From NCBI GenBank assembly GCA_947574215.1, contig CANPIX010000003.1, positions 15,770 through 79,769 of the forward strand: a stretch of 64,000 nt of DNA, in the 5' to 3' direction. The notes beneath the pieces were generated by a model. The model was not told the origin of the DNA. It was given only the letters and a program-made list of their open reading frames with translations, and ran no database searches. Of the stretch, positions 12,598 through 36,915 are shown piece by piece. Both the position numbers and the translations under genes were made by a program. This stretch comes from an uncultured Mycoplasmatota bacterium (GTDB taxonomy: Bacteria; Bacillota_I; Bacilli_A; RF39; UBA660). How positions within the stretch are numbered: the first letter of the stretch is position 1; the number at the start of each line of letters is the position of its first letter.

Positions 12598-14850
12598 TTA
12601 CTCATCACTAAAAAAATCATCAAAGAATTCATCGTCTGTAATAATATTATCATCAACAATCACACTATCTACATCTACATTAATTTTGGGTTTATCAGGA
12701 AGTTTATTATCTTCTTTCTTTTGATTCTTTTTTTGCGTTGTTTTCTTGGGAGAATTTACATTTTGTACCTTAGATACAGGTGCTTCTTTTTTTGCTTCTT
12801 TTGTTTCTTTACTTTTTTCTTGTTGTTTAGATTCTTCTAGTTCTTTCTTTTGTCTTTCCTCTTCTTCATCAAGTTCTTTTAATTTTTTATCAATATCCGC
12901 AATCATTTTATCTATATCTTCATTTGTCATAGGAGTGTCTTTTAAAAATGGATTTGAAGATTTGAAAGGATCCATGCCATTCATATCTTTCATAAAAGGA
13001 TTAGACCCACCAAAGGGAGACATTCCATTCATATTTGGCATTCCACTTGAGTTACCGAAAGGAGACATTCCAGGAAGTCCCATATTAAGGTTGTCTTTAT
13101 TATTTTCCATATCTTCCAACATTTTTTTACGTTTTTCTTCTGAAACAAATTTTTTTACATCAAACAAAGAAATGTTTTTTTCTTTACGAGAAGGAAGTTC
13201 GGCTTTTTTTCGTTCGATTCCCCAATCCATTTTAAAATCAGGCTCTAATTTTGTTTTAAATGGATATTTACGTAAACGTATAATTATAGCTTCAAATAAT
13301 TTTAATTTTTGTAAATCAGTTACCGTTACAAGTGGTGTGGATGCCGTCTTGTCCTTTTCTTTTGATTTTACTTCTCCACACATTTTACTGATTTCTTCTA
13401 AGGCAGCCATTTCTGTACTAATCAAATAAATCCAATTTCCACAGTTTCCTTTAATAACTTCAGCAACTTCTTTTCCATATACATCATTTAACTGCGCAAA
13501 GTTTTGGATAATGAATGTAAAACGTATATCACGACTACGAGCAGCGGAAACCATGCTGTCTACATCTTTTAAAGGTGGCATATTGGCAAATTCGTCTAAG
13601 ATAAAATTGGTTCGAAATTGTAATTTTCCTCCATTTTCTTTAGCCACATCAATTAAAGTTTCGTAACATTGCTTAATAAAGATGGTTAACAAACTGTGGT
13701 ACGTGGTTTTTTCATCGTGAATAATCATAAAGACTGCTGTTTTTTCTTTACCAATATCACGCATATCGAAATCGCTATACGAAAGCATTTCACTTAATAT
13801 CTCTCGAGAAGCAAAAGTACGAATCTTTTGGCGGAATGTAGAAGTAATTCCACCAGCTGTATCTTTGGGAGCGTTAATTGTTCCGGATGCAAAAATATAG
13901 GCGCTTGAATCTTGTCCTTTTAAGTTAAAGTATTCTTTAATATAAGTACTAGCAGCAAAACGTTCTTCTCCCACACTACTCATATAATTAATGGAATTCA
14001 TGTTGACTTCTTCTTCTTTGGCATCCATAAATAACCCTAAAGCAAGACCTGAGAAGTAATCAGCAGCACTGTTTTCCCAAAAAGGTTCACTTTTATTATT
14101 GGGATCTCTTATAATATTTAAAGCGACATCGTCTAATAATTCTGTTGATTTATCAACATTACCATTTTGATAATTTTGATAAGGTAATGTAAGAGGATTC
14201 CAAGCGTTTCCATTTTTTGGATCCCTAAAGTTTAAAACAATGATCTTATACCCTTGTTCTTTTAAATATTCTGCACTATATTCGTAAATTTCTCCTTTAG
14301 GATCAGTAATAATCATAGATTCCCCTTTTTTGGACAATAAATTAATCATAGGTTTTACAACAGTTTGGGTTTTTCCAGAACCTGTAGATCCTATAACTAA
14401 GTTATGATATTCTCCATTGTCAACCCAAATGTCTTTTCCGTTATTTATTAGAGGAATTCCTGCTGCGTTTACTTTTTTTTCACTTGCTAGTACATGCTCG
14501 ATATTTTTATCTTCTTTAATTTCATTGTCTTTGCTCCATCTTGAATAACCCTTTTCTTCTTTTTCCTTTAGCGTTATTCCAATTCCATGTCCTTTTTCTC
14601 GATCAAAAATATAAGAAGATACAGAAGTAAATATAATAATCAAAGCAGTAAAAAACATAAGCATGGTAAGAATTAAATTATCTCCAACAAAGGCTGGAAA
14701 TGGATTTAAGCCAAAAAATTCGCCTTCGTTAAAAAACGAGGTGAAATTTAATACCGCTATTGCACATAAATACAACAAAAAGATACAAAAGATTAGAAAC
14801 ATAACGAAATCTTTTGATGACACTCTAAATTTCATAAAACATACCTCCAA
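12598..14850 (-). CDS. Type IV coupling protein, TraG/VirD4 family
   Basis: N-terminal TM helices. Walker A GSTGSGKT within LVIGSTGSGKTQTVVKPMINLLSKKGESMIITDPKGE, the TraG/TrwB signature. The C-terminus carries M/P/F/G-rich PFG repeats, a K/E coiled-coil and an acidic tail DDEFFDDFFSDE. Confidence 0.75.
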   Translation of the reverse strand: MEVCFMKFRVSSKDFVMFLIFCIFLLYLCAIAVLNFTSFFNEGEFFGLNPFPAFVGDNLILTMLMFFTALIIIFTSVSSYIFDREKGHGIGITLKEKEEKGYSRWSKDNEIKEDKNIEHVLASEKKVNAAGIPLINNGKDIWVDNGEYHNLVIGSTGSGKTQTVVKPMINLLSKKGESMIITDPKGEIYEYSAEYLKEQGYKIIVLNFRDPKNGNAWNPLTLPYQNYQNGNVDKSTELLDDVALNIIRDPNNKSEPFWENSAADYFSGLALGLFMDAKEEEVNMNSINYMSSVGEERFAASTYIKEYFNLKGQDSSAYIFASGTINAPKDTAGGITSTFRQKIRTFASREILSEMLSYSDFDMRDIGKEKTAVFMIIHDEKTTYHSLLTIFIKQCYETLIDVAKENGGKLQFRTNFILDEFANMPPLKDVDSMVSAARSRDIRFTFIIQNFAQLNDVYGKEVAEVIKGNCGNWIYLISTEMAALEEISKMCGEVKSKEKDKTASTPLVTVTDLQKLKLFEAIIIRLRKYPFKTKLEPDFKMDWGIERKKAELPSRKEKNISLFDVKKFVSEEKRKKMLEDMENNKDNLNMGLPGMSPFGNSSGMPNMNGMSPFGGSNPFMKDMNGMDPFKSSNPFLKDTPMTNEDIDKMIADIDKKLKELDEEEERQKKELEESKQQEKSKETKEAKKEAPVSKVQNVNSPKKTTQKKNQKKEDNKLPDKPKINVDVDSVIVDDNIITDDEFFDDFFSDE

Positions 14851-14911
14851 TAAGTAAACTTGTACTTCAATTTCTTTCTTATTTTACTATACTATTTTCG
14901 TTTTCGCAATT

Positions 14912-15703
14912 CTAATTTATTCCTTTAACAATGCTTTGCATATTATTTTTATCACAATTATATATATAAGTTGTTGGAACACCTACATTACTAAAATAGC
15001 CTTTTAAAAGAATTAAAAAATCTTCTTTTTGATTAAAAATATTTATAATTCCTTTTATTTTATAAGTAGGAACTTGATAGTTTTCATTTTTATTATAAAT
15101 ATCTAAATGTATAATCGATGATTTATTATTAATTACACTTATAACGATTGAAAACAGTTTTTCATCTTTCGTTTCATCGTTTAAATTAGAAGCCAATAAA
15201 ATCTTTTCATTTTTTCCATTTTTATTGAAATCGTATTCTAAAACTTCGTTTTGCTCTAAATTTGAATAAAAATCTATATTATTTTCTTTTAAATATTTTT
15301 CTAAAATAGTTAACTCTTCTGTGTTTAATTTTCGAATATTAAAATTTTGAACCTTTAAATCCAATGATTTGCTTCCAGCAATAAAATTTTCAGAAATATT
15401 TACCCAATTGTTATAATTATCAAAAAAATTCCATTTGTTAATATATTTTATTTTATAGTTCCCTCTATGATTAAAGCTTTCAAAAACAGTAAAGTTATCT
15501 ATTGAATCTTTTTCATTAATTTTTTCTTTTTCAATTGATTTACATTCTTTTTTATCACAGCGATAAGAGGATATATTCGATAATAATAAATATCCCTCTT
15601 TCTTATCTTTTTTTAATACTGTTAAAGCTATACAACCTATCAAAAAAAGTACTAAAATCACCCAAAATGCTGGCATTTTTACTAATTCTTTTATTTTATT
15701 CAT
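14912..15703 (-). CDS. Membrane-anchored extracytoplasmic protein, possible VirB8-like channel component
   Basis: N-terminal TM helix plus a roughly 220-aa extracellular domain. Size and position between the hydrolase and the coupling protein fit TcpC/VirB8-like proteins. No diagnostic motif. Confidence 0.3.
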   Translation of the reverse strand: MNKIKELVKMPAFWVILVLFLIGCIALTVLKKDKKEGYLLLSNISSYRCDKKECKSIEKEKINEKDSIDNFTVFESFNHRGNYKIKYINKWNFFDNYNNWVNISENFIAGSKSLDLKVQNFNIRKLNTEELTILEKYLKENNIDFYSNLEQNEVLEYDFNKNGKNEKILLASNLNDETKDEKLFSIVISVINNKSSIIHLDIYNKNENYQVPTYKIKGIINIFNQKEDFLILLKGYFSNVGVPTTYIYNCDKNNMQSIVKGIN

Positions 15704-15712
15704 TTGTTCTCC

Positions 15713-17938
15713 TTAATATTTATACATTACATATCCTACTAAATCGTCAGCACTGTAAGTATTTATTTTACCGTTTCCTGGATCATATACAGTAAAATTA
15801 CTACCTGACATCGATTTTAAAACAACATAATGTCCACTTAAATGCTGTTCATTTTTAAAGTGTAAAAGAATGCTTGTATTAACGTCTATATTCGATTGTA
15901 TTTCACCGATCTTTTGACTGGTATCCCAATCCGTCATTCTTATTTGTTTAATAAATCTAAATGAAGGGGCAAAGGAAGAAATAGCACTATTATTCCAATA
16001 AATACGTGCACCATCAAAACCTCCACTTGCATTCATTTTCTGTACAAGAGTCCCCGGATTAAATGAAGCCACATTATTGATTTGAACTCCAGAACATGAT
16101 ATCGCGATTGCAACAGACGTTACAGCACACCCTGAAGAACTTATATCTTGTGAAGAAGAGCCAAGTTTTATATTCCCCCATCTTTGGTCGCCTTGTCTAT
16201 AAATAGTACACGCTCCTTGTCCAGGTTCACCAATTTCTGCTGATGGTACACAAATATCTGCATCTAAGCCGAATATTTTTTTTCGAGCACTTACCATAGA
16301 TTGAGATTGAAAAACCAAATATGCTTGTTTATCCTCATCAGTTGTAGGAACACAGTCATCACCACCCGCAGTAGTACAAACCTTTCCAGAGGCACAAGCA
16401 TTTCTTACACGATCAGGAATGTTATTTCCATAAATTGCACTAGCGTATACACATCCACCTACTCCCCAACTCCCAGGGTTATACCAGTAATCTCCTAAAT
16501 AAGCATATTTCCCCATTAAATCTGTTAATGAGTCATATTTTGATATAAAACTTAAAAATCCAGCGACCCCATCTGATAAACTACTATAGGAAATACAAGC
16601 ATCATAGCCTCCTGTGTTTGTACATCCTAACCCCCAATAATTATTTTTAGAAGGTCCTGGAGAATAACCTTCAACATCTGCTCTAACAAAAACAAGTTCT
16701 GGATTTATACCATTTGATGTTGCCATATCATAAATCATTCCTGCACTGTCAGCTAAAATTTTTGCATTTCCACTAGTTCCATAGTTTTCTGCCCATTGAA
16801 TAAATTCCTCTCTTGATAAAGTTGTACTAGACATTGAAATTGGACTACAACCACTAAAATTATAATCATACAAGAATGATGAATCTATTGTGTAGTACTC
16901 AATATCTCTTCCATAATAATATTCTAATATGCGATACAAATCATATTGAGTGTCTACTTGTTCAAGCAAATATTTAGCACCATACAAGCTCATTGATTCT
17001 AATTTTTCGATTTTCTCTTTTTTCAATTTTAAAATTATTTTTCCTTTTTTGGCTTCTAAATTATCTACCCAATCGGCTGGAATAACTTGTTGTCTTTCTT
17101 CATTTTTATGTGTCATTTGATAGTAATATTTATTTTTAAAATTTTCATCTTCTTCTTTTCTTTTTGATATATATGTAAATGCATCATATTTTGCAGAAAT
17201 AGGTTTTTGATTTTGTCCTATTATAATTCCTTTGGTTAGTCTAACCGCATCGTTTATTTCAGTATACTTTTCTTCATCACCAGTAAGTTCTATAAAGCTT
17301 TTTGCTTGGTCATTATAATTTTTTAATACTACACAGGTATCAGGAAGATTGGCAATTAAACGACTTCTAGCAGCAATTGCCATAGCTTGATAAACGATTT
17401 CGTTATCTACATCCAATGCATTACGATTATCCGTCCAAATAATTCCTGCAATGTATGTGTCATAATCGTATTCTTTATAAGAATAACGTTTCCCAAACTC
17501 ATCTTCTTCTTCTAAATCTACAACTAAAGCTGGATCTGCCAAAGGTAGATATTCAGGTTCTTTTTTTTGGCGAGCTTTTGTATAAGCTGCATTTTCCCAT
17601 GTTAAAAAAACTTTTCCGCATATTGGCGCTTGATAATATTTTGGATTCGTATTTCCTGTACCTTTTATATCTATATCCATATGAAAATTTACAAAAGCAA
17701 CAAAAAGAAGAAGTGCAATCCCTATTATACTTCCAATTGCTACTCCTTTTAATAATTTAGAAAAATCATCTTTATTAATTGTAGCTTTTGCATCTTTAAC
17801 AGAACCATTTGCATTTTCTATTTCTTTTTTTTCAATTTCTTCTTGTAGTTGATTTTCTAATTCATTTTCTTTAGCTTCTTTAAGAATTTTTTCTTTTACA
17901 TTTTGGTTATTGTTTTCTTCTCCATGTTCATTATTCAA
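15713..17938 (-). CDS. Multi-domain cell-wall hydrolase of the secretion apparatus (VirB1/CwlT functional analogue)
   Basis: Charged N-terminal tail, one TM helix, a central Gly/Cys-rich glycosidase-like region, and a C-terminal C39-like/CHAP-like peptidase motif (QGDQRW...SGCAVTSVAIA...GHYVVL). Confidence 0.55.
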   Translation of the reverse strand: MNNEHGEENNNQNVKEKILKEAKENELENQLQEEIEKKEIENANGSVKDAKATINKDDFSKLLKGVAIGSIIGIALLLFVAFVNFHMDIDIKGTGNTNPKYYQAPICGKVFLTWENAAYTKARQKKEPEYLPLADPALVVDLEEEDEFGKRYSYKEYDYDTYIAGIIWTDNRNALDVDNEIVYQAMAIAARSRLIANLPDTCVVLKNYNDQAKSFIELTGDEEKYTEINDAVRLTKGIIIGQNQKPISAKYDAFTYISKRKEEDENFKNKYYYQMTHKNEERQQVIPADWVDNLEAKKGKIILKLKKEKIEKLESMSLYGAKYLLEQVDTQYDLYRILEYYYGRDIEYYTIDSSFLYDYNFSGCSPISMSSTTLSREEFIQWAENYGTSGNAKILADSAGMIYDMATSNGINPELVFVRADVEGYSPGPSKNNYWGLGCTNTGGYDACISYSSLSDGVAGFLSFISKYDSLTDLMGKYAYLGDYWYNPGSWGVGGCVYASAIYGNNIPDRVRNACASGKVCTTAGGDDCVPTTDEDKQAYLVFQSQSMVSARKKIFGLDADICVPSAEIGEPGQGACTIYRQGDQRWGNIKLGSSSQDISSSGCAVTSVAIAISCSGVQINNVASFNPGTLVQKMNASGGFDGARIYWNNSAISSFAPSFRFIKQIRMTDWDTSQKIGEIQSNIDVNTSILLHFKNEQHLSGHYVVLKSMSGSNFTVYDPGNGKINTYSADDLVGYVMYKY

Positions 17939-17961
17939 TGGTAATCACCTACTAACTTTTA

Positions 17962-19746
17962 TTACAGTCCTCCTCCTGAACCAAATGAATCCAATTCCTC
18001 TTGAGTTACTATAACATTAATCCGCATTCTCCTATTACCACATATAAACAGTCCTTCCCCTTGATTGTAATATTTAATACTTTCCATTTCGGCTTCATTT
18101 AAATCAATTAATTTTCCTAAATCTTCAGTGGCTTGCTTACGAAGTCCCATAATTAAATAATAAGAGGCATTATCAAAAATTGCTTTTCCATGTACAAGAA
18201 CATTTGGTGCTGCAAAGTCTGTTGGCTGTTGGGTAATAATAATAGTACCTGTATTGTATTTACGACTACGTCTTTGTATTTGGGCTAAAAATTCTGCTCC
18301 TAATTCATTACGTGTTGATAAAAGGACATGAGCTTCATCTACACACATGACAGTATCTAAATCTTTATCCAAACACAATCCCCATGCGTATTTTAAAATA
18401 TTAAAGAACAAAGCATTTTTAATATTTTCATCACTATTCATAAGTTCACGAATATTAAATACTATGAAATCGCTTTCAATACTTAATGTAGTATGCCCTG
18501 TAAAATAGTATTTCAATTCTTTAACAAGTGGTCTTACTTTTAATTCTAAGCGTTCCATAACGTCTTTTTCATGCGTTTTATCTGGCATGGAAAGTAGTCT
18601 ACCTTTAATCGTTGCATAAACATCATCAAATGTTGGATAATCGTTAGCCGTTAATTTTGTAAAATCGGTATCATAATCAATTTTGTAACGTTTGTATGTA
18701 TCTTGTACTACTTCACTAAACATCGTTAATACATCTTCTTCAATAGAAGGAGAGTAATACTTCATAAATGCTTTTAATTGCTGTAAAGTTCTGGTTAGAA
18801 CTGTATAACCAAGGCCACTCTCAATTTCTTCTTCATCGGCATCCACAACAATTTCAAGCGGATTAATCATTCCAAATTCTCCACCTTTACCAAGGTCTAA
18901 GAAATCGCCACCAATATTTTTGGTCATTTCAGCAAGTTCGCCTTCTGGATCGATACAAACAACTTTATAATTATTTCGCAAATGACCACGAACAAGTAAT
19001 TTTGCTGCAGTTGATTTTCCACTTCCACTGGTTCCTAAAATAATCATATTGGCATTGTTACGATTGTTCTCTTTTTTTATTTTATAAAGAAATTGATTAA
19101 ATAAAACAACTCCACCAGAGAAATCTACACCAAATAAAATACTATTCCCTGGATCCTTAATACTATCAAAAATAAATGGATACATAGCGGCAACAGTGAT
19201 AGATGGAATCGGAGTTCCAACTCGATTTTCCACATCTTGTTTTGGAAAAATTGGTAAAATGGATTTTAATACTTTCTCTTGTTCGAACATCATAGGAATT
19301 CCACGCATTCCCATACCTTCTAAATAATTTCGAACTTGCATTTTTTTCATTTCTAATTCTTCTTTATTATCTGCAGAGATGAATAAATGCATTTGAAAAT
19401 CAAAAATTCTTGCTTGAGTTGCGGCAAGCATTTGAATAAATTGTTCTAATGATTCATAATCCTGACGAATTCGTTCTTGAAATGTTTTATCATTTTCTGT
19501 TTGGTATCTTTGCTTTAAATCAGCAATCTCTTTGTTTAACATTTTTTGCAAAGTTGAAAAAGCTATAGGAATATGCTTAATAGCTACTTTTACACCAGAA
19601 ATATTTGTAATATTTGCTAAATATCCCTCTGAAATATATTTAGGAAATGTTACAATCGTTAAAATAGTGCAATATTTTCCACTTATCAACATTTCCGTAG
19701 GTTTAAATTCTATTCCTTTTGGAGCTAATTGTGCTTTTATATTCAT
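17962..19746 (-). CDS. VirB4/TrsE-family type IV secretion ATPase (short form, 594 aa)
   Basis: Gram-positive VirB4 N-terminal YCTILTIVTFP motif. Walker A GTSGSGKST, Walker B MCVDEAHVLL and the RRSRKYNTGTIIITQ motif. Confidence 0.75.
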   Translation of the reverse strand: MNIKAQLAPKGIEFKPTEMLISGKYCTILTIVTFPKYISEGYLANITNISGVKVAIKHIPIAFSTLQKMLNKEIADLKQRYQTENDKTFQERIRQDYESLEQFIQMLAATQARIFDFQMHLFISADNKEELEMKKMQVRNYLEGMGMRGIPMMFEQEKVLKSILPIFPKQDVENRVGTPIPSITVAAMYPFIFDSIKDPGNSILFGVDFSGGVVLFNQFLYKIKKENNRNNANMIILGTSGSGKSTAAKLLVRGHLRNNYKVVCIDPEGELAEMTKNIGGDFLDLGKGGEFGMINPLEIVVDADEEEIESGLGYTVLTRTLQQLKAFMKYYSPSIEEDVLTMFSEVVQDTYKRYKIDYDTDFTKLTANDYPTFDDVYATIKGRLLSMPDKTHEKDVMERLELKVRPLVKELKYYFTGHTTLSIESDFIVFNIRELMNSDENIKNALFFNILKYAWGLCLDKDLDTVMCVDEAHVLLSTRNELGAEFLAQIQRRSRKYNTGTIIITQQPTDFAAPNVLVHGKAIFDNASYYLIMGLRKQATEDLGKLIDLNEAEMESIKYYNQGEGLFICGNRRMRINVIVTQEELDSFGSGGGL

Positions 19747-20348
19747 TCTGGCATCACCGTTCCTAACGTAGTAGCTTGTCCCCCATTAAAGAAATTATCG
19801 ATTAGCATTCTTAAATCATTATTAGACACTTGCATTGAATGCAAACCACATGTAGATAAATTACTAATTAAATTATGAATACGTTTTTGAACAATCTCTA
19901 ACTTTTTCTCTTTAAATAATATAAAATATTCTGTATCAACAACATTGTATTCTGCACTCATAAACATATTCGCTTTGTTAATATCTTGCATAATTAATTT
20001 GCGAATAGCTGAACTTGTGGAGCTGTTATATAAAACTTGTAATTGTGATAAATGAACATTTATATCCACTGGACGATCAGCAACAATAAGCCAAAATTCA
20101 TAATCCATTGTATTGTAAAAATTTCTCAAATTGTAAATAACATTACTCTGCGTGTCTTGATCTAAAATAAATATATTTTTAGGAGCTATTTTTACTCCTG
20201 TTACATATTCTCCAGAATCTAATTGAATCATTCCATTCATTATTTGCTTGATTGGTACCCAATCCTCCGTATATTTACTTATTGCTTTATTCTTTGCCAT
20301 CAGTAATACACCAGCCTTTCCAATATAACCTTTTTCTGCCAAAGACAT
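19743..20348 (-). CDS. Hypothetical protein translationally coupled to VirB4 (possible detached VirB4 N-terminal domain)
   Basis: Its stop overlaps the VirB4 ATG (ATGA overlap). No TM helix. Together, 201 + 594 aa is about the length of a canonical VirB4. Confidence 0.4.
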   Translation of the reverse strand: MSLAEKGYIGKAGVLLMAKNKAISKYTEDWVPIKQIMNGMIQLDSGEYVTGVKIAPKNIFILDQDTQSNVIYNLRNFYNTMDYEFWLIVADRPVDINVHLSQLQVLYNSSTSSAIRKLIMQDINKANMFMSAEYNVVDTEYFILFKEKKLEIVQKRIHNLISNLSTCGLHSMQVSNNDLRMLIDNFFNGGQATTLGTVMPE

Positions 20349-28463: not shown

Positions 28464-28478
28464 AAGATTACTCCTTAA

Positions 28479-28745: not shown

Positions 28746-28763
28746 ATGTACAACTCCTATGCT

Positions 28764-29081: not shown

Positions 29082-29870
29082 TTACATTCCCATTAACATT
29101 AAAACAGCAAAAATCAATAAAATCATAACACCTAACCCAGTAGTTATTAACATACTCATCGTTTTGGATTCCATTTTTTCTAAACGTTCTTTGTATCTTG
29201 TTTCTCTTGCTTTTTGTTGTAGATTGGATATTGTTTTGGAAAATGCTAGTAACTGTTCTTGTTTATGCTCTTGTCTTCCTAAACTTAAACGATACAAAAG
29301 TCTCATCATACGCATTGAATCTCTTACAGGATATTCTTTCGCAAAATTAATGTAAGGATCTATTTTGTCATTCCCCGCATTAATTTCATTTATTAACTCT
29401 TGTAATCCTTCTCTAAAAATTTCTGGTGCATCGTTAATTGATTTACCGATTGCTACTGGTACTGTATAATGTTGAATTAATATTTCTAAGCTTTTTAAAT
29501 AATGTGGTAACATTGAATTAATTTCGTGTAAATGTGCTTTATAATACTTTTTTATATTGAAGTAATCTAATTTAAATACTAAATAACCTCCAATAAAACA
29601 AAATAAAATTGTAACATAATTAAGTTTTGAAATAAAACAAAAAACAAGTACAATAATTGTAATTAAACCATTGCGTATTCTTTTGTTAAATAGAATATCA
29701 CTATTTACACCCTCTCCAAATTTGGCTTTTACATAAAAATCCCAATCATCTTCTTTTAGCTTTCGAAAATATACTTCATTGTCGGCGATAAAGCGGTTTG
29801 CACTAATTCTTCCTGTATAATTCATAACGTAAAGTATTATAACTCCTATAATTAAAATTTCAATGGCCAT
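29082..29870 (-). CDS. TadC-like platform protein (type II secretion system F-domain family)
   Basis: Topology matches TadB/TadC: an N-terminal TM, a cytoplasmic helical domain, and C-terminal TMs. Sits beside the TadA ATPase. Confidence 0.45.
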   Translation of the reverse strand: MAIEILIIGVIILYVMNYTGRISANRFIADNEVYFRKLKEDDWDFYVKAKFGEGVNSDILFNKRIRNGLITIIVLVFCFISKLNYVTILFCFIGGYLVFKLDYFNIKKYYKAHLHEINSMLPHYLKSLEILIQHYTVPVAIGKSINDAPEIFREGLQELINEINAGNDKIDPYINFAKEYPVRDSMRMMRLLYRLSLGRQEHKQEQLLAFSKTISNLQQKARETRYKERLEKMESKTMSMLITTGLGVMILLIFAVLMLMGM

Positions 29871-29871: not shown

Positions 29872-30765
29872 CTATTCTACCCCCACATCTTGATTGTAAT
29901 ATTTTTCTCCACTTAGTAAGAAATAACAATTGATGAGAATGATGGCGTGTAAAATAAGCTTTACGTACCATATTTCCAATAATTCAATATAACTATCCGT
30001 TCCTAATAAAAATTGCATTGCCATTACAAGTAAGAACAAAGCAAGTCCAAAGGTAATAAAACGTTTGTGAAAATTTTTACGGTCTGCTTGGTCACGGTAA
30101 ACACCTTCTACCAAAGCATCGATATCTTGCGACATATTCTCTAAAGCTTCTCCTGAATCTTTTGCTCCTTCTTTCGTAATTTGTAAGAATAGTTGATTCA
30201 TATTTTTAACCATATAAAATGGATATTTTTCGTTAAAATAATCAATGGATTCGTCAATTGTTCCATTTTGATAAGACATTTCAATCATAGTTCTTACATC
30301 TTGTAAAACAGGATCTTCTAAAATACCTGAATCTCTTACACCTTCTAAAGATTTTACAAAACTCTGTGTTGTTGTAAATTCCATAATGACATTGGTTGTG
30401 TAAATTTGAATTTGTTCAAAAATAAATTCACTGTATATTTTTTGATAACGTAGATAAGATAAGTAAGGAATAAATGCAATGGCCACTATAGCGTATAAAA
30501 TCATTATCACTATATTATAAAAATAAAGATAAGAAATTCCGCCTGCTATAGCGGCAAACATAACAATTTGGCTAGTGTATTGTCGAACAGTAAATTCTTG
30601 CCCCAAATTTTTTACTTTTTCTCTTACTTCTTTATAACTATAAGGAGCAAACTTATCATATGTATCTTTTACTTGTGTAATAAAGAAACGATACACATTT
30701 TCTCCATTGTTTTGACGATAAGAAACTACATAGATTCCTATAATCCATAAAAGTATTAATTCCAT
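29872..30765 (-). CDS. TadB-like platform protein (type II secretion system F-domain family)
   Basis: Same topology as the neighbouring paralog; 2-nt gap between the two genes. Confidence 0.45.
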   Translation of the reverse strand: MELILLWIIGIYVVSYRQNNGENVYRFFITQVKDTYDKFAPYSYKEVREKVKNLGQEFTVRQYTSQIVMFAAIAGGISYLYFYNIVIMILYAIVAIAFIPYLSYLRYQKIYSEFIFEQIQIYTTNVIMEFTTTQSFVKSLEGVRDSGILEDPVLQDVRTMIEMSYQNGTIDESIDYFNEKYPFYMVKNMNQLFLQITKEGAKDSGEALENMSQDIDALVEGVYRDQADRKNFHKRFITFGLALFLLVMAMQFLLGTDSYIELLEIWYVKLILHAIILINCYFLLSGEKYYNQDVGVE

Positions 30766-30779: not shown

Positions 30780-31901
30780 CTATATTGTACTTGCTACATT
30801 TCGATTTATAAAAGTAGCATTACTTGTATTTGAGGAAGAGATCGTTCCTGTTTTAAATATATTTTCTGGTAAAATAACACCTTGCACAGATAGATAATCT
30901 CTTAAATGTTTGGTTGGATTGTTTAAAGACAATTTTCCATCCATTGATTTTTGATAAATCGTATTCACTTGAGGTTTGTTATCTTCATCAACATAAAATT
31001 CACAAATTTCCATAATTTCTCTTTGAAAACGTCCAAGTTCTTTACTCATGTATCCTTTTACATATACGCCAATTTGTACATAACGATGAATTGTTGCTAA
31101 AAACTGTTCAACTTCTTGATTGGTTTCTAATAAACTATACATACGCATTGGAATAGAAGACGCTTTATCTGAGTGAATTGTTGATAAAATATGATGCCCT
31201 GATGAAATTGAATTACGAACGGCAAGGACAGCTTCTGCACTACGCACTTCGGATAATAATATCCAAATGGGATTTTGACGCATACAAGTCACCAAAACAT
31301 CTGTATAAGAGGCAATATTGTTGGTTTTCATCGCCACTATATCTCGATGAGGAAAAATACGATCCAAATGAAGTTCCAATGTATCTTCTATTGTAATGAT
31401 TTTTTCATCTTCTTTTGTAGTACTTGCCAGATATTTTACAAGTTCTGTTTTTCCTGAACCTGTTTCTCCACTTACAATAATGTTTGCATGTCCTTGTACA
31501 CATTGTAATAAAAATTCAAGTAAATCAGAGGAAACGTAGCGTTCATTTATTAATTTTTCTTTGTTTAGACGGATTTTTGCTGGAGTTTTACGAATTAAAC
31601 AAGCAATACCGTTTGTAGCTATAGAATCATGAATAAAATTCAAACGCAATTCAGTAGACTCTGCGTCCAAAAAAGGATGAGCCATATTAAAGGTTTTTCC
31701 CATAACATTTGAACATTGAAACGCTAATTTTTCCATTAAAGCGTTGTTAATCTCTGGGCGTTCAACTTTATAAACACCTTTTGAAAGCGTTTTTACCCAA
31801 ACTTGTCCACCATTACTGTAAGAGATATCTGTTACGTCGTCCACCCTTAAAAACTCTTCAATTGGACCAAAATCCAATTGGGAAAAGATAGCATCATCCA
31901 T
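30780..31901 (-). CDS. TadA/CpaF-family secretion ATPase (VirB11/GspE superfamily)
   Basis: Walker A IIVSGETGSGKTE. CpaF-type motif RQNPIWILLSEVRSAEA. His box STIHS. Confidence 0.75.
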   Translation of the reverse strand: MDDAIFSQLDFGPIEEFLRVDDVTDISYSNGGQVWVKTLSKGVYKVERPEINNALMEKLAFQCSNVMGKTFNMAHPFLDAESTELRLNFIHDSIATNGIACLIRKTPAKIRLNKEKLINERYVSSDLLEFLLQCVQGHANIIVSGETGSGKTELVKYLASTTKEDEKIITIEDTLELHLDRIFPHRDIVAMKTNNIASYTDVLVTCMRQNPIWILLSEVRSAEAVLAVRNSISSGHHILSTIHSDKASSIPMRMYSLLETNQEVEQFLATIHRYVQIGVYVKGYMSKELGRFQREIMEICEFYVDEDNKPQVNTIYQKSMDGKLSLNNPTKHLRDYLSVQGVILPENIFKTGTISSSNTSNATFINRNVASTI

Positions 31902-31936
31902 GGTGCAAACACCCTCTTTCCTATTCTTTTATTCTT

Positions 31937-32803
31937 TTATTGATTGTTTGTTGTATTGTCATTATTGTTATTATCATTATTATTGTTATTAGTATTATTG
32001 TTATTATTTGAATTTGTTATATTTTGCGGAATTGTTGCACTCTTCGCTAAAATGAAGCTTTTAATATAGTCACTTGAAACATTTGTTTCTCCAGGGTTCG
32101 CACTATAAGAAGCATTTCTTGGAATTGGGTTGATTTCAATAGAAGATCCAGTAATATATCCCGCTTTCATAAGTAATTCATACATTTCATTCGGTACAGC
32201 AAATAATAATTCTGCTGGTGTACGCGTTTCTACAGTCGTTTCAAAAACATGATTTCCTTGGCTGTCTTTAACAGCTAATACTTCAATACTTTCAATAAAT
32301 TTTCCATACATAACTAGTCCTGTATCGTCTACACCTTTAAAATACAAATCAATATAATTTCCAGGATAAATAGAGTTTCCATAAGTTGTATGTAAATCAA
32401 CACTCAAACTATAAATTGTGTATCCATCAGGAATATTAGCAAAAGCACTATCTGGCATTTCATTTTTGGTTAATATTTGTGATTTATAAAACATGCTATT
32501 TGCTGGTACAGTTGTTCCAAAAGCAATATAGTTGTTAATTAGTTCACTTGCGTTGGTAATTAAATTAGAACTATTTTTAACTACGCTACTTGAAACTTCC
32601 ATATATCCTATCATATCGCTAGTTATTAATGTACGACTAGATAATTCCTCTTTGGCATAAGGAACAGTAATTGGTGTTGTTGCTTGTTTCACACGATAAT
32701 TGTATCCTATATATATAACCAATATACCAAGTAACACCCCTAAAATTGTTACAGTATTTTTATTTGCTAAAAATCTTTTTACTGTTGTTAATACATTTCC
32801 CAT
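31937..32803 (-). CDS. CpaB/RcpC-like Flp pilus assembly protein (SAF domain) with poly-Asn tail
   Basis: N-terminal TM helix. SAF-like segment TTPITVPYAKEELSSRTLITSDMIGYMEV. Beta-clip-like segment IEVLAVKD...LLFAVPNEMYELLMKAGYITGSSIE. C-terminus NNNNNTNNNNNDNNNNDNTTNNQ. Confidence 0.55.
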   Translation of the reverse strand: MGNVLTTVKRFLANKNTVTILGVLLGILVIYIGYNYRVKQATTPITVPYAKEELSSRTLITSDMIGYMEVSSSVVKNSSNLITNASELINNYIAFGTTVPANSMFYKSQILTKNEMPDSAFANIPDGYTIYSLSVDLHTTYGNSIYPGNYIDLYFKGVDDTGLVMYGKFIESIEVLAVKDSQGNHVFETTVETRTPAELLFAVPNEMYELLMKAGYITGSSIEINPIPRNASYSANPGETNVSSDYIKSFILAKSATIPQNITNSNNNNNTNNNNNDNNNNDNTTNNQ

Positions 32804-32931: not shown

Positions 32932-33336
32932 TTATTGTGCATTTAATTCTAAAATAGCATCCACTTTATTCACAATATCAAATGTAGTCTGATCCCCTGC
33001 TACAATAAAACTTCTTGTTTTACTAGCGACTTTCACACTTACCTTTGGTGGGGCTTCATAAATTCCATAAAAGGAAATTTCATAGGTATTTAGACTTACG
33101 TTTTCGGCAAATCTTCTTAGAAAAGATTCAATAAATTTCTCACGATCTATTTTTAATTCACCATATTCACGATAATATCCATAATTTACAGCATCCACCA
33201 TGGCGGCTTCTGTTACTTCTTTTATTAAATAATAATCTTCTGTATTTTGTGTGGTAATGTTTGAGATTAACATCATAATTACAACCACAAATACACCTAA
33301 CATAATTAACCAATAACCCCAGTAAGATTCTTTCAC
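32932..33336 (-). CDS. Small N-terminally anchored protein (minor pilin-like)
   Basis: N-terminal TM helix followed by a roughly 100-aa extracytoplasmic domain. Sits between the adhesin and cpaB. Confidence 0.35.
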   Translation of the reverse strand: MKESYWGYWLIMLGVFVVVIMMLISNITTQNTEDYYLIKEVTEAAMVDAVNYGYYREYGELKIDREKFIESFLRRFAENVSLNTYEISFYGIYEAPPKVSVKVASKTRSFIVAGDQTTFDIVNKVDAILELNAQ

Positions 33337-33352
33337 TAGTTAATCACCTCTT

Positions 33353-36160
33353 CTATTTCCAAGCAGGTCCTGTATTACTGTTTTTTTCTCCTGACCATAA
33401 GGTCCAAGTTTTATTTCTTTTGATTTCTTCAAAAAAGCCTTTTCGTTTTCCTTCATCTAAGAAAGTGCTTGTTCCATAGGCATTTGGAACATTTTCCATA
33501 TCATGATATTGTAAATCCTCTGCAACATACGTTCCTGTTTCTTTATTGTAATCTCGAATTGCTTTCATTGTTGTTGCATCAAGCCTGTAAACGTACTGTG
33601 CTTCTTTATATACATTTTCACCAGTTTCTTCTATTTCTTTTATAGTTTCCTTACCTTTTTCATTGGTTAAATTATTTCCTAATGGTCGTCCACTTGGATT
33701 TACTTCACTTCCAATAATTCTCCAGAAGAAAGTGCTTTCATCTCCATCAAATATACAGTTTGTACAATAAACGTCACAATCTGGACATTGTGGTTTTGGA
33801 TCTGGAATAATACAATTATTACCACTTGGATCCAAACATTCATAATCACAATCTGGACAGTCTACTACATACACACAAACGTATTGAAGGCCTGCAGTTG
33901 TAGATTTGCCTAGTGCTTTAGCAACATCATCTAATCGACCGTTATTGCAACCAACATTTTGATTGTATTGTCCTAATTTAGAAAAATTCAAATTCCAATT
34001 GTACACTCCTGTAGGTGTATTTAAAGCAATTGGGAATACAGTTCCTAAATAAGAATAATTGTAACGGATATTGCTTGGATCGGAAACAGTATCAATGGTT
34101 CCATGTGGGTAATTCGTTTGAAATTGTTGTTGATTGTTATAAGCTGCTTCTCCAGTAGATTCTTTTTTCATATGGTATACATGATTTACCAAAGTCGATA
34201 TTTTTTCTGCTGCTGTTACTTCATTTGAAGTATTGCATCCATTTTCATCACAATAAGCGTAGTTATGATTTTCTAAATTTCCACCAGCTGTTGTAGTGTA
34301 CGCATTATCGATGGTTTTATTTTGTGAATACCCTGTTGATACATCCTTTGAAATATTACTATAAATTTGTTCGTAATTGATACTGCCTGTGTATTGTTCA
34401 TCGTATTGGAAGAAAACATCTGGATTTAAACACAACTCGTTTTTCCATCCATAACATTCTTCCATATGTTTAATCATTTGAATCAAATTGTTTCTGGCTG
34501 CAATCATATTATTTTTGGCTGTTGCAACGGCCGCTTCAAAATCATAATTATTTGTAGATGTTTTGTTGGATTCTGACCAATCTGGGAAGCAATCTAAACC
34601 ACCATTACCATTATCCGAAATGTGTCCACTACACGTTCTTTCACAAGAGCCTGTTGTTCCCCAAACACGTCCTTCTGTTGTTCCCGTTTTTGCATTTGGT
34701 GTACAAACTCCTGTTTTGGTGTTACAAGTAGCAGCCCATCCATTATAAGATGAAGATTTAATTTCATAATGAGGCCCTATTTTTGTTCCATTGCAACCAC
34801 TATCGTATTGTGGTGTTGCATTCGCTGCTAGTTCTTTTTCTTTAATTGCTTTTTGATAAGCATCAGCAGCGTTTATCATATTTTTTTGTGCTTCGGTTAC
34901 ATCTGCAATAAATTTTTCTATATTGATGTTTGTCGTTTCTGTATCTCCAGTTGGATTTCCCGTGTAGCAAGTTCTTTTTGCGTTAACCACTGTGTTTGTA
35001 AGATTAAAGTATCTACCACTATCGGAATATCTTGCTCCTGGCATTGTGATTTCATAATCTTCTTTACAGAATACTGCGCAATACGGATTATTTTCACTAA
35101 CTTGTCCATCTAGCATTTGATAAGTATTTCCTGCTTCATCGGAATGATTTAATATACAATATTTAACATCTTTTGGAGCAGTAATGGTTATTTTTTCCTC
35201 TCCTGCATCGTCGCAATAAGAAGGAACTTGAATATCCGTTTTTTGTGTACATTTATCTTCTTTGTTTCCATCACAATACTTTTTATAATAATTTCCACCT
35301 GTAGAGGCATCAATCGTTCCTTTAAAGGTTTGAGTAACTTTATTGCCTGTAACAGAAGTTCCTGAATTATTTCCAGAAGTGGCTCCATTTGATTCTGCAG
35401 TTCCATTAATTGTAAATACAGTACCTTGAATATTTCCACTTCCAGAACAATAAATTACTTTAGAAGTTGTCACATTGTTATCTTGAACGTTGTTACCGTT
35501 TCCATCGTATTTCGCTATGATTGTAAAATCACAACCATTTGTAACGGTTACGCTTATAGATCCTGTTGTTCCATTCCAATTTTGAGAATTAATTTGACAA
35601 TTTGAGCATTCAAAAGTTACATTTTGTAAAGCAACTGGGGAATATAAACTGTAATTTACGGTATTTTCACGTCCACCAGCTTTTGTAAAAGTTATTTTTC
35701 CTCCAGCTCCTCCAGCGTAGTTGTTAGCATTTGTTAATAACGCATTTACTTGATCCATCGTTCCATTTGAAGAAACAACTTGATGATTGGTTTGAGCAAT
35801 TCCAATTTGCTGTGCAATTACACGAGACGCTAATTGTTTTACTTTGTGGCTTGCGTTCGGATCATTTAATACATAACTTAAAGCGGGAGAAGATATTTCT
35901 TGACATGTAACGGACGCTACATCATTTCCTCCACCCATAGTCATTCCAAAATCGACACAATACGCTTCATTGTCTTTATTATTGTATCTAACGTTAATAT
36001 GATAATCTTGATAATGTTTTCCATTATCGTATTCTATAGTGTTATCGGGTTTCCCATTTTGGCTTACCCAAGCTACACCATTGCTTGCACTTGCTTGCAC
36101 TGGAAATGCAACAATTGCTAAAGCCATAATAAATACTAATTTCAGCTTATTTTTTTTCAT
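33353..36160 (-). CDS. Large secreted Cys/Thr/Gly/Asn-rich protein (935 aa), candidate pilus-associated adhesin
   Basis: Clear signal peptide ending AFPVQASA. More than 40 Cys spread through the protein. No TM helix or LPXTG motif. Confidence 0.5.
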   Translation of the reverse strand: MKKNKLKLVFIMALAIVAFPVQASASNGVAWVSQNGKPDNTIEYDNGKHYQDYHINVRYNNKDNEAYCVDFGMTMGGGNDVASVTCQEISSPALSYVLNDPNASHKVKQLASRVIAQQIGIAQTNHQVVSSNGTMDQVNALLTNANNYAGGAGGKITFTKAGGRENTVNYSLYSPVALQNVTFECSNCQINSQNWNGTTGSISVTVTNGCDFTIIAKYDGNGNNVQDNNVTTSKVIYCSGSGNIQGTVFTINGTAESNGATSGNNSGTSVTGNKVTQTFKGTIDASTGGNYYKKYCDGNKEDKCTQKTDIQVPSYCDDAGEEKITITAPKDVKYCILNHSDEAGNTYQMLDGQVSENNPYCAVFCKEDYEITMPGARYSDSGRYFNLTNTVVNAKRTCYTGNPTGDTETTNINIEKFIADVTEAQKNMINAADAYQKAIKEKELAANATPQYDSGCNGTKIGPHYEIKSSSYNGWAATCNTKTGVCTPNAKTGTTEGRVWGTTGSCERTCSGHISDNGNGGLDCFPDWSESNKTSTNNYDFEAAVATAKNNMIAARNNLIQMIKHMEECYGWKNELCLNPDVFFQYDEQYTGSINYEQIYSNISKDVSTGYSQNKTIDNAYTTTAGGNLENHNYAYCDENGCNTSNEVTAAEKISTLVNHVYHMKKESTGEAAYNNQQQFQTNYPHGTIDTVSDPSNIRYNYSYLGTVFPIALNTPTGVYNWNLNFSKLGQYNQNVGCNNGRLDDVAKALGKSTTAGLQYVCVYVVDCPDCDYECLDPSGNNCIIPDPKPQCPDCDVYCTNCIFDGDESTFFWRIIGSEVNPSGRPLGNNLTNEKGKETIKEIEETGENVYKEAQYVYRLDATTMKAIRDYNKETGTYVAEDLQYHDMENVPNAYGTSTFLDEGKRKGFFEEIKRNKTWTLWSGEKNSNTGPAWK

Positions 36161-36915
36161 AGTACTCTACTCCTTTTTCTTTTTATAAGTATCGTACTAG
36201 TAATACCCCCTATTATTAGCACAGTTCCAATACCTGAAATGTTAATTATCATTGCATTTCGTTCATAGAACTCTTTTATTTTTTTCCAAAAACTTTTATT
36301 TTCATGTTCAGCTTGTTCTTCTTTTTCTTTTTCCTTTTTGTAATCTTTTACTTTTGTAAGGAATTCATCTATATCTATATTTTCAGATGAAATATATTCT
36401 TGACAGTAGTAGAAACCAGGATTTTCTTGACACGCTGTCATTTTGGAATATGAGTTGTAAATTGGTGTTACAATTGTAAATTTCCGAAACATCTCACCTA
36501 CACAAGAATATTTATTTGAATAGATTTCAATCGTATACGTAACTAAATTGCTTACTCCTTTAACCTGAAAATTAGCAGTCCCCTCAACTGTATCTTTATA
36601 ATAATACGTGTGAGTATCTTTATTTATATTGTTGCTTACTTTGACATAAATGGCATCCGTTATATTTAATACGCTAATTTTAAAGCCTTTCGAATAATTA
36701 TCAATTTCTGGAATATTCCCTTTTTCATCTGGATTATCAATGTCAAGTACTTTTCCTTCATAAATATCGACTGCTTCATAGGTTGCTTTTACATTGGCAA
36801 CTATATCGTTTATTTTCGCTTGTTCTGAATAACTACAAGCGCTTTGCGCTTTTACAAAATTTGGAATGCAAAATATAATCGCTAGTAAAAACAATTTTTT
36901 AAAATTTGTTTTCAT
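36157..36915 (-). CDS. Secreted protein with C-terminal TM anchor, first gene of the cluster
   Basis: Signal peptide, a roughly 200-aa domain, and a C-terminal hydrophobic helix followed by the tail KRKRSRVL. RBS GGTGG before the ATG. Confidence 0.45.
   Translation of the reverse strand: MKTNFKKLFLLAIIFCIPNFVKAQSACSYSEQAKINDIVANVKATYEAVDIYEGKVLDIDNPDEKGNIPEIDNYSKGFKISVLNITDAIYVKVSNNINKDTHTYYYKDTVEGTANFQVKGVSNLVTYTIEIYSNKYSCVGEMFRKFTIVTPIYNSYSKMTACQENPGFYYCQEYISSENIDIDEFLTKVKDYKKEKEKEEQAEHENKSFWKKIKEFYERNAMIINISGIGTVLIIGGITSTILIKRKRSRVL

Follow-up and report, generated by a model that had tools for sequence, protein, structure and literature searches.

In a 64,000-nucleotide stretch of contig CANPIX010000003.1 (assembly GCA_947574215.1), which is the window analysed here, a gene cluster joins components resembling those of a Tad/Flp (type IVc) pilus to components of a type IV secretion system (T4SS). 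The cluster comprises 24 intact open reading frames (ORFs) of at least 79 aa, all on the minus strand, in an unbroken co-directional run from 36915 to 12598, with spacings of -62 to +128 nt and three 4-nt overlaps of the ATGA type. The initial annotation had the coordinates (12598-36915), the strand and the uninterrupted run exactly, but it counted 27 genes and left two members unmentioned: the DUF5411 gene at 32932-33336 and, at 24520-25632, the gene for a bitopic protein of 370 aa. Judged by sequence, the genes from the 252-aa anchor protein through the TadZ/CpaE-like protein would form a surface-protein and Tad-type filament module, and a second module, with three VirB2-like proteins, VirB6-like and VirB3-like proteins, a split VirB4, a wall hydrolase and VirD4, would be a Gram-positive T4SS. 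The features, in the order in which the genes are read, are:

36157..36915, minus strand: 252-aa protein with signal peptide and C-terminal membrane anchor (from sequence)
33353..36160, minus strand: 935-aa secreted Cys-rich (33 Cys) surface protein, candidate adhesin (from sequence)
32932..33336, minus strand: 134-aa DUF5411 protein (PF17424, 9.6e-58) with prepilin-like N-terminus (MKESYWG, then a hydrophobic helix)
31937..32803, minus strand: 288-aa CpaB/RcpC-like pilus assembly protein (PF16976, 2.9e-6, and TIGR03177, 3.3e-6, both slightly under cutoffs)
30780..31901, minus strand: 373-aa secretion ATPase of the TadA/CpaF-VirB11 clade (PF00437, T2SSE, 7.5e-27), Walker A GETGSGKT intact
29872..30765, minus strand: 297-aa polytopic platform protein, TadB-like (T2SSF family), by a transitive profile-profile link
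29082..29870, minus strand: 262-aa polytopic platform protein, TadC-like (T2SSF family), by hhalign
28224..29006, minus strand: three small Cys-rich prepilin-like proteins of 80, 88 and 79 aa (sequence, motif scan, Cys counts)
27225..28210, minus strand: two paralogs of 166 and 162 aa, candidate minor pilins or pseudopilins (MREAIGGTW, then a hydrophobic helix)
26226..27221, minus strand: 331-aa cytoplasmic protein of TadZ/CpaE-like architecture (receiver-like N-domain, ParA/MinD-like C-domain)
25691..26101, minus strand: 136-aa two-helix hairpin membrane protein, VirB2-like (T4SS_pilin; PF18895, 2.2e-5; CagC, 0.0022)
24520..25632, minus strand: 370-aa bitopic protein with N-terminal anchor and extracellular domain (position conserved, 47-67% identity)
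23320..24498, minus strand: 392-aa protein, secreted domain plus C-terminal VirB2-like hairpin (PF18895, 0.0079, residues 306-369)
22720..23205, minus strand: 161-aa protein, secreted domain plus C-terminal VirB2-like hairpin (alignment with the VirB2-like paralogs)
20619..22697, minus strand: 692-aa polytopic VirB6/TrbL-like channel protein with coiled-coil C-terminal tail (NF045889, 2.8e-6, below cutoff)
20287..20601, minus strand: 104-aa protein with two transmembrane helices, VirB3-like (weak Pfam TcpE hit, E 0.015)
19743..20348, minus strand: 201-aa VirB4 N-terminal domain as its own ORF (NF045975 positions 98-276, 2.5e-14; PF26593, TraC-like)
17962..19746, minus strand: 594-aa VirB4 ATPase domain (NF045975, 1e-106, 357.7 bits; CD1110 family, 4.7e-52)
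15713..17938, minus strand: 741-aa membrane-anchored candidate cell-wall hydrolase (C-terminal papain-like Peptidase_C39_2, PF13529, 1.1e-6)
14912..15703, minus strand: 263-aa bitopic protein, no family hits in Pfam or NCBIfam
12598..14850, minus strand: VirD4/TraG-type coupling protein of about 745-750 aa (PF02534, 1.8e-55; PF10412, 1e-26; PF12696, 1.5e-23)
12565..12590, minus strand: terminator-like hairpin and T-run, 8 nt past the VirD4 stop (consensus match only)

The terminator expected after the last gene was thus found, as a terminator-like hairpin (12590-12565) directly past VirD4. The promoters proposed at each end of the divergent region and internally found no support, since promoter-like matches in this AT-rich window (25-35% GC) numbered 90 against 92.8 expected from shuffled sequence, so that statements on promoters carry no weight. 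One such match, TTGACA-17-TAAAAT at 26163-26135, lies inside the 124-nt gap between the TadZ-like gene and the first VirB2-like gene. An Rfam search found no regulatory RNA in the cluster or upstream of it.

Components of the two modules

The secretion ATPase scored about equally with the NCBIfam models for VirB11 (1.9e-31) and for conjugal-transfer-associated TadA (2.4e-28), both below cutoff, and its closest solved structure was CpaF (4.8e-18); it was 31.6% identical to p37 of plasmid pLS20 (6e-40) and 79-95% identical across relatives. The CpaB-like family matched bona fide CpaB in hhalign (94.7%, 5.6e-8) and the SAF/CpaB proteins of plasmids at 99.6%, with 34% identity to the pBMB67 counterpart by blastp (5e-29). 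Neither platform protein had a direct match in Pfam or PDB, and they were placed by hhalign against small TadB/TadC alignments from six plasmid Tad loci, plus equivalents from Firmicutes plasmids. The TadB-like family of the window matched the Firmicutes plasmid family (96.1%, 2.8e-9), and the latter matched bona fide TadB (97.4%, 1.1e-11; merged family, 97.0%). For the TadC-like family the corresponding values were 97.5% (6e-12) against the plasmid family, 85.8% (5.3e-6) directly against the TadB references and 96.1% after merging, while the plasmid TadC-like family matched bona fide TadB at 93.4%. Across relatives, the 297-aa and 262-aa proteins were 85-94% and 87-96% identical, respectively. 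The TadA/CpaF, CpaB/RcpC, TadB and TadC assignments of the initial annotation therefore stand, the last two by way of the plasmid families. Its TadZ-like protein fared less evenly. The 331-aa protein combines the receiver-like domain with a ParA/MinD-like domain in which the Walker A is degenerate (GIKNVTNHAGSTT), and a model built from a 36-sequence alignment (pLDDT 73) supported a TadZ/CpaE-like architecture at the level of the fold, which is a generic one; direct sequence searches of Pfam, NCBIfam and PDB were unproductive and gave no sequence-level link to TadZ/CpaE.

Six proteins of the first module (the three Cys-rich ones, the 162/166-aa pair and the DUF5411 protein) start with a short charged leader that ends in Gly and precedes a hydrophobic helix; five leaders are of the M[KR]E type and one is longer. 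Two of the three Cys-rich proteins share the leader MKEATG followed by ELNMTVV and the helix. None of the three contains the Flp pilin motif (G/XXXXEY), hhalign against Flp pilins was negative, and their sole Pfam signal, Archaeal Pilin_N at E 0.45, is at chance level, so the earlier call of three Flp-like pilins could not be upheld. The 166-aa and 162-aa proteins, 57-78% identical across relatives, proved to be paralogs of each other (hhalign 100%, 5.9e-50) and showed no link to the TadE/F pseudopilins they had been taken for, hhalign against TadE/TadF and DUF4320 being negative. The DUF5411 protein, equally unmatched to Flp, TadE/F and DUF4320, appears from profile comparison to group with the small N-anchored protein whose gene lies ahead of the ATPase gene on plasmids: it matched that plasmid family at 92.5% (E 4.9e-7), and p36 of pLS20 matched the same family at 99.3%. 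It was 93% identical to its equivalent in locus L040. At L042:8380-9027 (also in L043) the DUF5411 protein is lengthened to 215 aa by an extracellular Flg_new domain (Listeria-Bacteroides repeat), as would suit a pilin-like protein anchored at its N-terminus and exposing its C-terminal domain.

At the head of the cluster, the 252-aa protein had no Pfam match, and direct searches of Pfam, NCBIfam and PDB yielded nothing usable for it or for the 935-aa protein. Its stop codon and the start of the 935-aa gene share 4 nt, and in relatives it always precedes the large gene; it is the conserved partner of the large surface protein, and its identity was 61% in L040 and 28-47% in L022, L025 and L042. 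The 935-aa protein diverges fast (47% in L040, 24-37% elsewhere). Its slot is taken by the TIE adhesin in pLS20 and by a SpaA-like protein in Enterococcus faecium p3, an equivalence that is positional only. Divergent from the cluster, and kept in L040 and L041, are a thioredoxin-like gene (37136-37576, plus strand) and a CAAX/CPBP intramembrane protease gene (37578-38294, plus strand), whose products may help to form disulfides in the Cys-rich pilin-like proteins or to process them. On E. faecium p3 (L032:5551-5994) and on a Listeria plasmid (L033:25751-26452), too, CPBP/CAAX proteases are encoded near the corresponding module.

In the second module, the VirB4 and VirD4 calls of the initial annotation were borne out by homology, as was the TadA-like one, and the 201-aa protein that it described as coupled to VirB4 is the VirB4 N-terminal domain. 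The ATPase domain of VirB4 has an intact Walker A (GTSGSGKST) and matched AAA_10, P-loop_TraG and DUF87 of Pfam, while both of its NCBIfam models (Mycoplasma ICE VirB4 and the CD1110 family) scored below cutoff; it was 29-30% identical to VirB4 of pBMB67 and pEYLC1.2 and 81-100% identical across relatives. The N-domain ORF overlaps the ATPase ORF by 4 nt and was 28% identical to the separate N-domain ORF of pBMB67 (7e-15). Because the split is common to pBMB67, pLS20 and all relatives, it is a trait of the family and not a frameshift, and a frameshift pseudogene was excluded on the same grounds. VirD4 was 33% identical to its pBMB67 homolog and 25% to p48 of pLS20. Its acidic-aromatic C-terminal tail (...DDEFFDDFF) was invariant in all the chromosomal loci, and the last ~25 residues (window 12598-12690; ...VDSVIVNDNIITDDEFFDDFF) were nearly invariant in the equivalents from L004 to L030, behind a low-complexity region of variable length; the tail is not present in VirD4 of pLS20, pBMB67, pEYLC1.2 or E. 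faecium. In the F plasmid, the acidic-aromatic C-terminal tail of TraD binds TraM. By analogy with that tail, which it resembles, the VirD4 tail may dock a conserved partner or substrate, and its invariance likewise suggests a conserved partner or substrate receptor.

The remaining parts of this module are membrane and wall proteins. The 136-aa protein scored 24.9 bits with PF18895 (cutoff 26.6), and all the PF18895 hits were below the gathering score. The 392-aa protein aligns with this paralog and diverges fast (24-45% identity across relatives), the 161-aa protein was 35-62% identical, and the two-helix hairpin and Cys motifs are kept across all three, so that the three VirB2-like hairpin paralogs of the initial annotation are retained on a shared alignment with sub-threshold hits. 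Comparison of this family with the VirB2-like proteins of plasmids by hhalign was not significant. The model matched by the 692-aa protein, NF045889, is that of the Mbov_0396 transmembrane protein of a Mycoplasma integrative conjugative element (ICE); the gene lies upstream of VirB3/VirB4, as VirB6 does on plasmids, and its product was 35-49% identical across relatives. The VirB3-like protein (68-88%) fills the slot of PrgI/DUF5592 on plasmids. Besides its papain-like domain, the 741-aa hydrolase candidate gave a weak SpoIID/LytB hit (1.4e-3) and no sequence match in PDB, and its positional counterparts in L028 and L030 contain SpoIID, M23 and lysozyme domains, or SpoIID and NlpC/P60 domains. 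A glucosaminidase-domain protein (704-1447, minus strand) and a second Peptidase_C39_2 protein (1531-2505, minus strand; 1.5e-14) adjoin each other in the window; they share the papain-like domain type with the C-terminus of the 741-aa protein and may be general wall-remodelling enzymes. The 370-aa bitopic protein had zero matches in Pfam, NCBIfam and PDB. The VirB8-like label that the initial annotation gave to the 263-aa protein found no support: direct searches of Pfam, NCBIfam and PDB yielded nothing usable, hhalign of its family against p53 of pLS20 (VirB8) gave 11.8%, and a single-sequence AF2 model with pLDDT 39 was discarded; comparison of the 263-aa and 370-aa families with p53 and other plasmid candidates was negative.

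Counterparts on conjugative plasmids and in other systems

No match to the whole cluster was found by megablast against the PLSDB plasmids. At the protein level, the top plasmid matches of VirB4 were in Exiguobacterium pEYLC1.2 and the pBMB67/pAW63/pXO2 family (pBMB67 from Bacillus thuringiensis), and those of the 373-aa ATPase in plasmids of Peribacillus, Lactococcus, E. faecium, Listeria and B. anthracis. The linkage of Tad-like and T4SS genes and their order recur in pLS20, pBMB67, E. faecium p3 and pEYLC1.2. The conjugation operons of pLS20 and of the pXO2/pAW63/pBMB67 plasmids of Bacillus, and likewise Enterococcus, Listeria and Exiguobacterium plasmids, share with the window one ordered set: a large surface adhesin, a small N-anchored protein, 'VirB11'/TadA, two TadB/TadC-like proteins and small N-anchored proteins, and then a VirB2-like hairpin, VirB6, VirB3, the VirB4 N-domain ORF, VirB4, a wall hydrolase and VirD4. 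Gene order in E. faecium p3 and pLS20 is as in the window, that of pLS20 being TIE adhesin (gene 34), p36, 'VirB11'/tadA (gene 37), p38, p39, p40, p41, p45, VirD4, VirB6, DUF5592, p51 and VirB4 (cf. PMC8557374). In pBMB67 and pEYLC1.2 the T4SS group consists of a MobP3 relaxase, VirD4, pilin, TrbL, PrgI, the ORF of ~200 aa and VirB4, and the Tad-like group of a large protein, a small N-anchored protein, CpaB/SAF, an AAA ATPase that is TadZ-like by hhalign (95.2%), a T2SS-type ATPase, two proteins of ~300 aa, a small protein and DUF4320. Both plasmids thus have CpaB and a TadZ-like ATPase, too. Their conjugation regions also contain polytopic ORFs resembling prepilin peptidases, with D..R and GDTK motifs (pBMB67, L001:25496-26047; pEYLC1.2, L002:33596-34192); the first has no entry in the gene table of PLSDB, and the second is annotated as hypothetical.

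Between window and plasmids, identity was 25-32% for the ATPase, 21-30% for VirB4, 25-33% for VirD4 and 31-34% for CpaB, and the TadB/C and DUF5411 proteins were related by profiles. The plasmids, in contrast to the window, carry a MobP relaxase and replication and partition genes and are demonstrably conjugative. The cluster differs in being chromosomal, in having three VirB2-like paralogs, two of which are joined to an extracellular domain, in its Cys-rich pilin-like proteins, and in that VirD4 ends the operon instead of preceding VirB6; no relaxase, integrase or prepilin peptidase was found in the 64 kb.

In the papers on pLS20 and pAW63 the ATPase is VirB11, p38-p41 are of unknown function and no pilus components are encoded (PMC8557374, PMC1196294, PMC9673590), the TadB/TadC-like genes beside the pLS20 'VirB11' being left as unknown (PMC8557374). 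The RefSeq name of that 'VirB11' gene is tadA, and its neighbours turn out, by profile comparison, to be putative TadB/TadC platform proteins. Full-text searches of the open-access literature, a coverage that leaves out Grynberg et al. 2007 on the T4SS genes of pXO2, turned up no paper linking these plasmids with Tad components. The initial annotation had taken the joined Tad and T4SS unit to suggest a transfer apparatus not yet characterised; the linkage is genuine and recurs on plasmids and chromosomes, but it is no novel fusion, being the standard layout of a well-studied family of conjugative plasmids, and the pairing appears from these comparisons to be already present, unrecognised, in well-known conjugative plasmids. 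A linear plasmid of Brevibacterium, pAP13 (L037), has an annotated Tad set (SAF/CpaB, CpaF/VirB11, two T2SSF, TadE, TadG) adjoining genes annotated 'conjugal transfer protein' and 'ATP-binding protein', and Tad and conjugation genes may be linked in Actinomycetota too.

With the Tad/Flp pilus the cluster has in common a TadA/CpaF-clade ATPase, two T2SSF proteins, CpaB, a two-domain protein that is TadZ/CpaE-like in its fold and several proteins with short charged leaders ending in Gly and a hydrophobic helix. It lacks the Flp pilin motif, detectable TadE/F homology, a prepilin peptidase in the window and a secretin, the last as expected in a monoderm; its ATPase, at 373 aa a short one, does equally well with VirB11 models, and its TadZ-like gene lies past the pseudopilins and not before the ATPase. 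The top NCBIfam models for VirB4, its N-domain ORF and the VirB6-like protein are those of the Mycoplasma ICE T4SS (Mbov_0397 VirB4, Mbov_0396), with scores below the equivalog cutoffs (590 and 70). By contrast, the organism here is walled and its cluster includes a candidate hydrolase, something that mycoplasma ICEs lack, and a DDE transposase and ICE borders are not present. We know of no canonical relaxase in the T4SSs of Mycoplasma ICEs. The resemblance to the archaeal Ced/Ted systems invoked in the initial annotation is marginal: CedD (1e-10, 41 bits against a cutoff of 600) and CedB (2e-6, 26.7 bits against 700) score as would be expected from generic VirB4/HerA similarity only.

A parallel in Gram-negative bacteria is offered by the R64 (IncI) thin pilus, TP114 and PAPI-1, in which a type IV filament system is likewise encoded beside the T4SS on the same element. 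Pilus-assisted conjugation is established for all three (PMC12102498, PMC12857230), and according to PMC12102498, PMC9045228 and PMC12857230 the filament serves mating-pair formation or stabilisation. Those systems differ in having a type IVb instead of a Tad-type pilus, a diderm envelope and an additional conjugative pilus of the VirB2 type. The chromosomal T4SS of Patescibacteria (for example Southlakia epibionticum) shares with the cluster VirB4, VirD4 and, in so far as the VirB3-like, VirB6-like and hydrolase calls are right, these components too, all of the monoderm type, arrays of PF18895-type VirB2-like proteins, no relaxase seen, and strong conservation in an uncultured lineage (PMC12102498, PMC12857230). 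It works alongside a type IV pilus, whereas the pilus module of the window is Tad-type and physically fused to the T4SS operon, and the phylum is different, the window being from Bacilli.

Chromosomal setting and conservation

On one side the cluster is flanked by RmuC, DedA and rhodanese genes, and on the other by thioredoxin, CAAX protease, metallophosphoesterase, FtsW and tyrosyl-tRNA synthetase (TyrRS) genes. The window contained no replication gene and no border or att-like repeat beyond chance. An ICE was rejected, as the window has no integrase, relaxase or att-like repeat, the housekeeping flanks are conserved and divergence is not uniform. The proteins of the cluster occur solely on metagenome contigs and contigs of metagenome-assembled genomes (MAGs), and the labels given to close relatives are 'uncultured Bacilli', 'Tenericutes', 'Erysipelotrichaceae', 'Mycoplasma sp. 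CAG:776' or 'Candidatus Ventrenecus'. A scan with the VirB6-like protein, one genome per species, gave 18 species-level MAGs with the same order and with the rhodanese flank wherever the contig reaches it; the thioredoxin side is likewise kept in relatives. Related uncultured Bacilli have the joined cluster at 21 or more chromosomal loci, and in a more distant clade (VirB4 about 85% identical) it has different flanks and adjoins SpoVA genes. The adjacency in related genomes, which the initial annotation had proposed to check, is thus found in the same order in at least 18 MAGs and on unrelated replicons, and is not a chance juxtaposition. Identity values between relatives were as follows:

VirB4, motor/platform: 89-97%
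TadA, TadB and TadC, motor/platform: 85-96%
TadZ-like protein, motor/platform: 78-91%
VirD4, motor/platform: 73-84%
VirB6-like protein, surface-exposed: 35-49%
392-aa protein, surface-exposed: 24-45%
935-aa protein, surface-exposed: 47%
FtsW, flanking housekeeping, same genome pair: 66%
thioredoxin, flanking housekeeping, same genome pair: 58%

Conserved motors (85-97% identical overall) together with diverging surface parts (35-60%) are the signature of long vertical descent, strong purifying selection and a diversifying surface, and the pattern, as far as sequences can tell, does not look like recent transfer or decay. On these grounds, and given the plasmid counterparts, we believe the cluster to be probably, though by no means certainly, a relative of the pLS20 and pXO2/pAW63 type of mating-apparatus operon that has become fixed in the chromosome and is inherited vertically. 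The initial annotation had missed that this copy is chromosomal and vertically inherited and that no relaxase is found in the window. What is new here is this chromosomal, conserved form of the pairing, relaxase-less in the window.

It could be argued that the cluster is instead a decaying, nonfunctional remnant of an integrated conjugative element, given that relaxase and integrase, which such an element would have lost, were not found in the window and that VirB4 is in two ORFs. However, the split VirB4 is shared with functional plasmids, all 24 ORFs are intact, the synteny and both flanks are conserved, and the ATPases are 85-97% identical across species, above the flanking housekeeping genes, so that we regard such decay as highly improbable. 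The identical gene order, the conserved motors and the intact ATPase motifs argue for a working machine.

The organism has genes for a cell wall and of sporulation type (PBP5, FtsW, UppP, MurJ, CotZ-like). A CotZ-like gene is at 39256-39723 (minus strand) in the window, and SpoVAC, SpoVAD and SpoVAEB lie downstream of VirD4 in L028 and L030. The hosts are walled and probably spore-forming Bacilli, and the MAG labels 'Tenericutes' and 'Mycoplasma' are accordingly misleading. The sole indel seen at the border between VirD4 and rhodanese is an extra 390-aa ORF in L004 (L004:20254-21426), which by eye looks like a HipA-type kinase. Elsewhere in the window, the leucyl-tRNA synthetase (53519-56335, minus strand) has an inserted NUDIX domain (residues 372-486, 8.6e-10), and a T-box leader (110 bits) at 56743-56930 (minus strand) precedes a small upstream ORF and the synthetase gene.

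Coupling of the modules and possible function

If the cluster is a relative of the plasmid mating operons, its apparatus is most likely a domesticated, contact-dependent transfer machine that displays a pilus or an adhesin. A short pilus or pseudopilus of prepilin-like subunits would be built across the thick wall by the Tad motor and platform; this filament would display or position the large surface protein and so capture a partner cell; the hydrolase would open the wall locally, and the channel powered by VirB4 and VirD4 would move a cytoplasmic substrate into the partner. By analogy with all the characterised relatives the substrate would most probably be DNA, in which case the gene for the relaxase would lie outside the window or the enzyme would belong to an unrecognised type; a protein would be the alternative substrate. 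We infer that the apparatus has become a trait of the host in this lineage and is not part of a mobile element.

Several observations weigh against such a coupled, filament-assisted machine. Pfam-type scans of ORFs of at least 90 aa found no relaxase or integrase domain in the window, and no oriT (origin of transfer) was found there. The pilin-like proteins match no known pilin family, and neither tblastn with the pEYLC1.2 peptidase nor the Pfam scan of ORFs of at least 90 aa revealed a prepilin peptidase in the 64 kb, so that the Tad machine is not the 'complete' one of the initial annotation. The VirB2-like, VirB3, VirB6 and hydrolase calls combine sub-threshold hits with position, conserved position backing the last three, and the hydrolase call is further backed by the clear hydrolase domains of the proteins in relatives. 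The statement of the initial annotation that Gram-positive systems are not known to make pili matches the literature, in which these T4SSs are described as lacking conjugative pili and relying on adhesins (PMC12857230, PMC12102498, PMC8092201), and the cited papers report no filament for systems of the pLS20 or pXO2 type.

Moreover, each module can stand by itself. Locus L022 has the anchor, the large protein, DUF5411, CpaB, TadA, TadB and TadC, with a VirB2-like gene coming immediately next and no T4SS, Flp-like pilins or TadZ-like gene nearby; L025 has in addition pilins, pseudopilin-like proteins and a TadZ-like protein; and L042 has the seven-gene core alone, with a TadC 95% identical to that of the window. 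Conversely, the chromosomal loci L046 and L047 contain several VirB2-like fusion proteins, VirB6, VirB3, the VirB4 N-domain ORF and a VirB4 that is 82-83% identical to the one in the window, and within 10 kb no VirD4, homolog of the 741-aa hydrolase or Tad gene was found; by their gene content they would be a VirD4-less form of the system. Adjacency, and hence physical or functional coupling, is therefore not obligatory. The VirB2-like gene past TadC in L022 (12880-13227; also in L023 and L024, from an abundant related genome type) encodes a 115-aa hairpin 58% identical to the 136-aa protein of the window, and raises the question of which of the two machines uses the hairpin proteins.

These separate loci, together with the promoter-like site between the TadZ-like and VirB2-like genes, are what would be expected if the cluster were two neighbouring machines without mutual dependence, a Tad-type adhesion pilus for attachment to gut or host and a T4SS. 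Yet the same adjacency and order recur across two chromosomal contexts and no fewer than five unrelated types of replicon, on plasmids both modules lie within one conjugation operon (as in pLS20, PMC8557374), and the VirB4 and the ATPase of the window are each closest to plasmid versions that co-occur. We thus consider mutual independence unlikely, and the linkage functionally suggestive.

An organelle for acquisition or host interaction, importing DNA, nucleotides or other molecules or serving an epibiotic or parasitic association, would have parallels in the essential chromosomal T4SS and type IV pili of Patescibacteria, in ComB and in the Tad-dependent DNA uptake reported in Liberibacter and Micrococcus (PMC4322843, PMC8513845). 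The chromosomal and strongly conserved nature of the locus and the failure to find a relaxase in the window are compatible with it, as are the array of PF18895-type VirB2-like paralogs as in Patescibacteria (PMC12102498, PMC12857230), the related T4SS-only loci without VirD4, and the hosts, uncultured gut Bacilli some of which are labelled 'Tenericutes' or 'Mycoplasma sp. CAG:776'. The conserved VirD4 with its invariant C-terminal tail points, in contrast, to export of a cytoplasmic substrate, and the organism has a normal wall and genes of sporulation type. Import or epibiotic association is, in our opinion, quite improbable, and a domesticated transfer machine derived from the plasmid type of mating apparatus is preferred.

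A bolder possibility, which we put forward as doubtful, is that a filament-building Gram-positive T4SS, with Tad-type subunits, VirB2-like hairpins or both, was domesticated by gut Bacilli as a core cell-cell organelle for exchanging or obtaining DNA, nutrients or proteins, the Bacilli counterpart of the essential T4SS/type IV pilus pair of Patescibacteria; the 'VirB11' modules of the pLS20 and pXO2 plasmids would then be overlooked conjugative Tad pili. Some of these plasmids add CpaB, a TadZ-like protein, prepilin-like proteins and a prepilin peptidase to the TadB/TadC proteins beside 'VirB11', and the tractable pLS20 would allow testing whether a Tad-type filament or pseudopilus helps to cross the thick wall, display the adhesin and form mating pairs. 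The conserved, chromosomal form described here extends the finding, made in Patescibacteria, that a T4SS can be domesticated as a host organelle, which may now include a common lineage of the animal and human gut.

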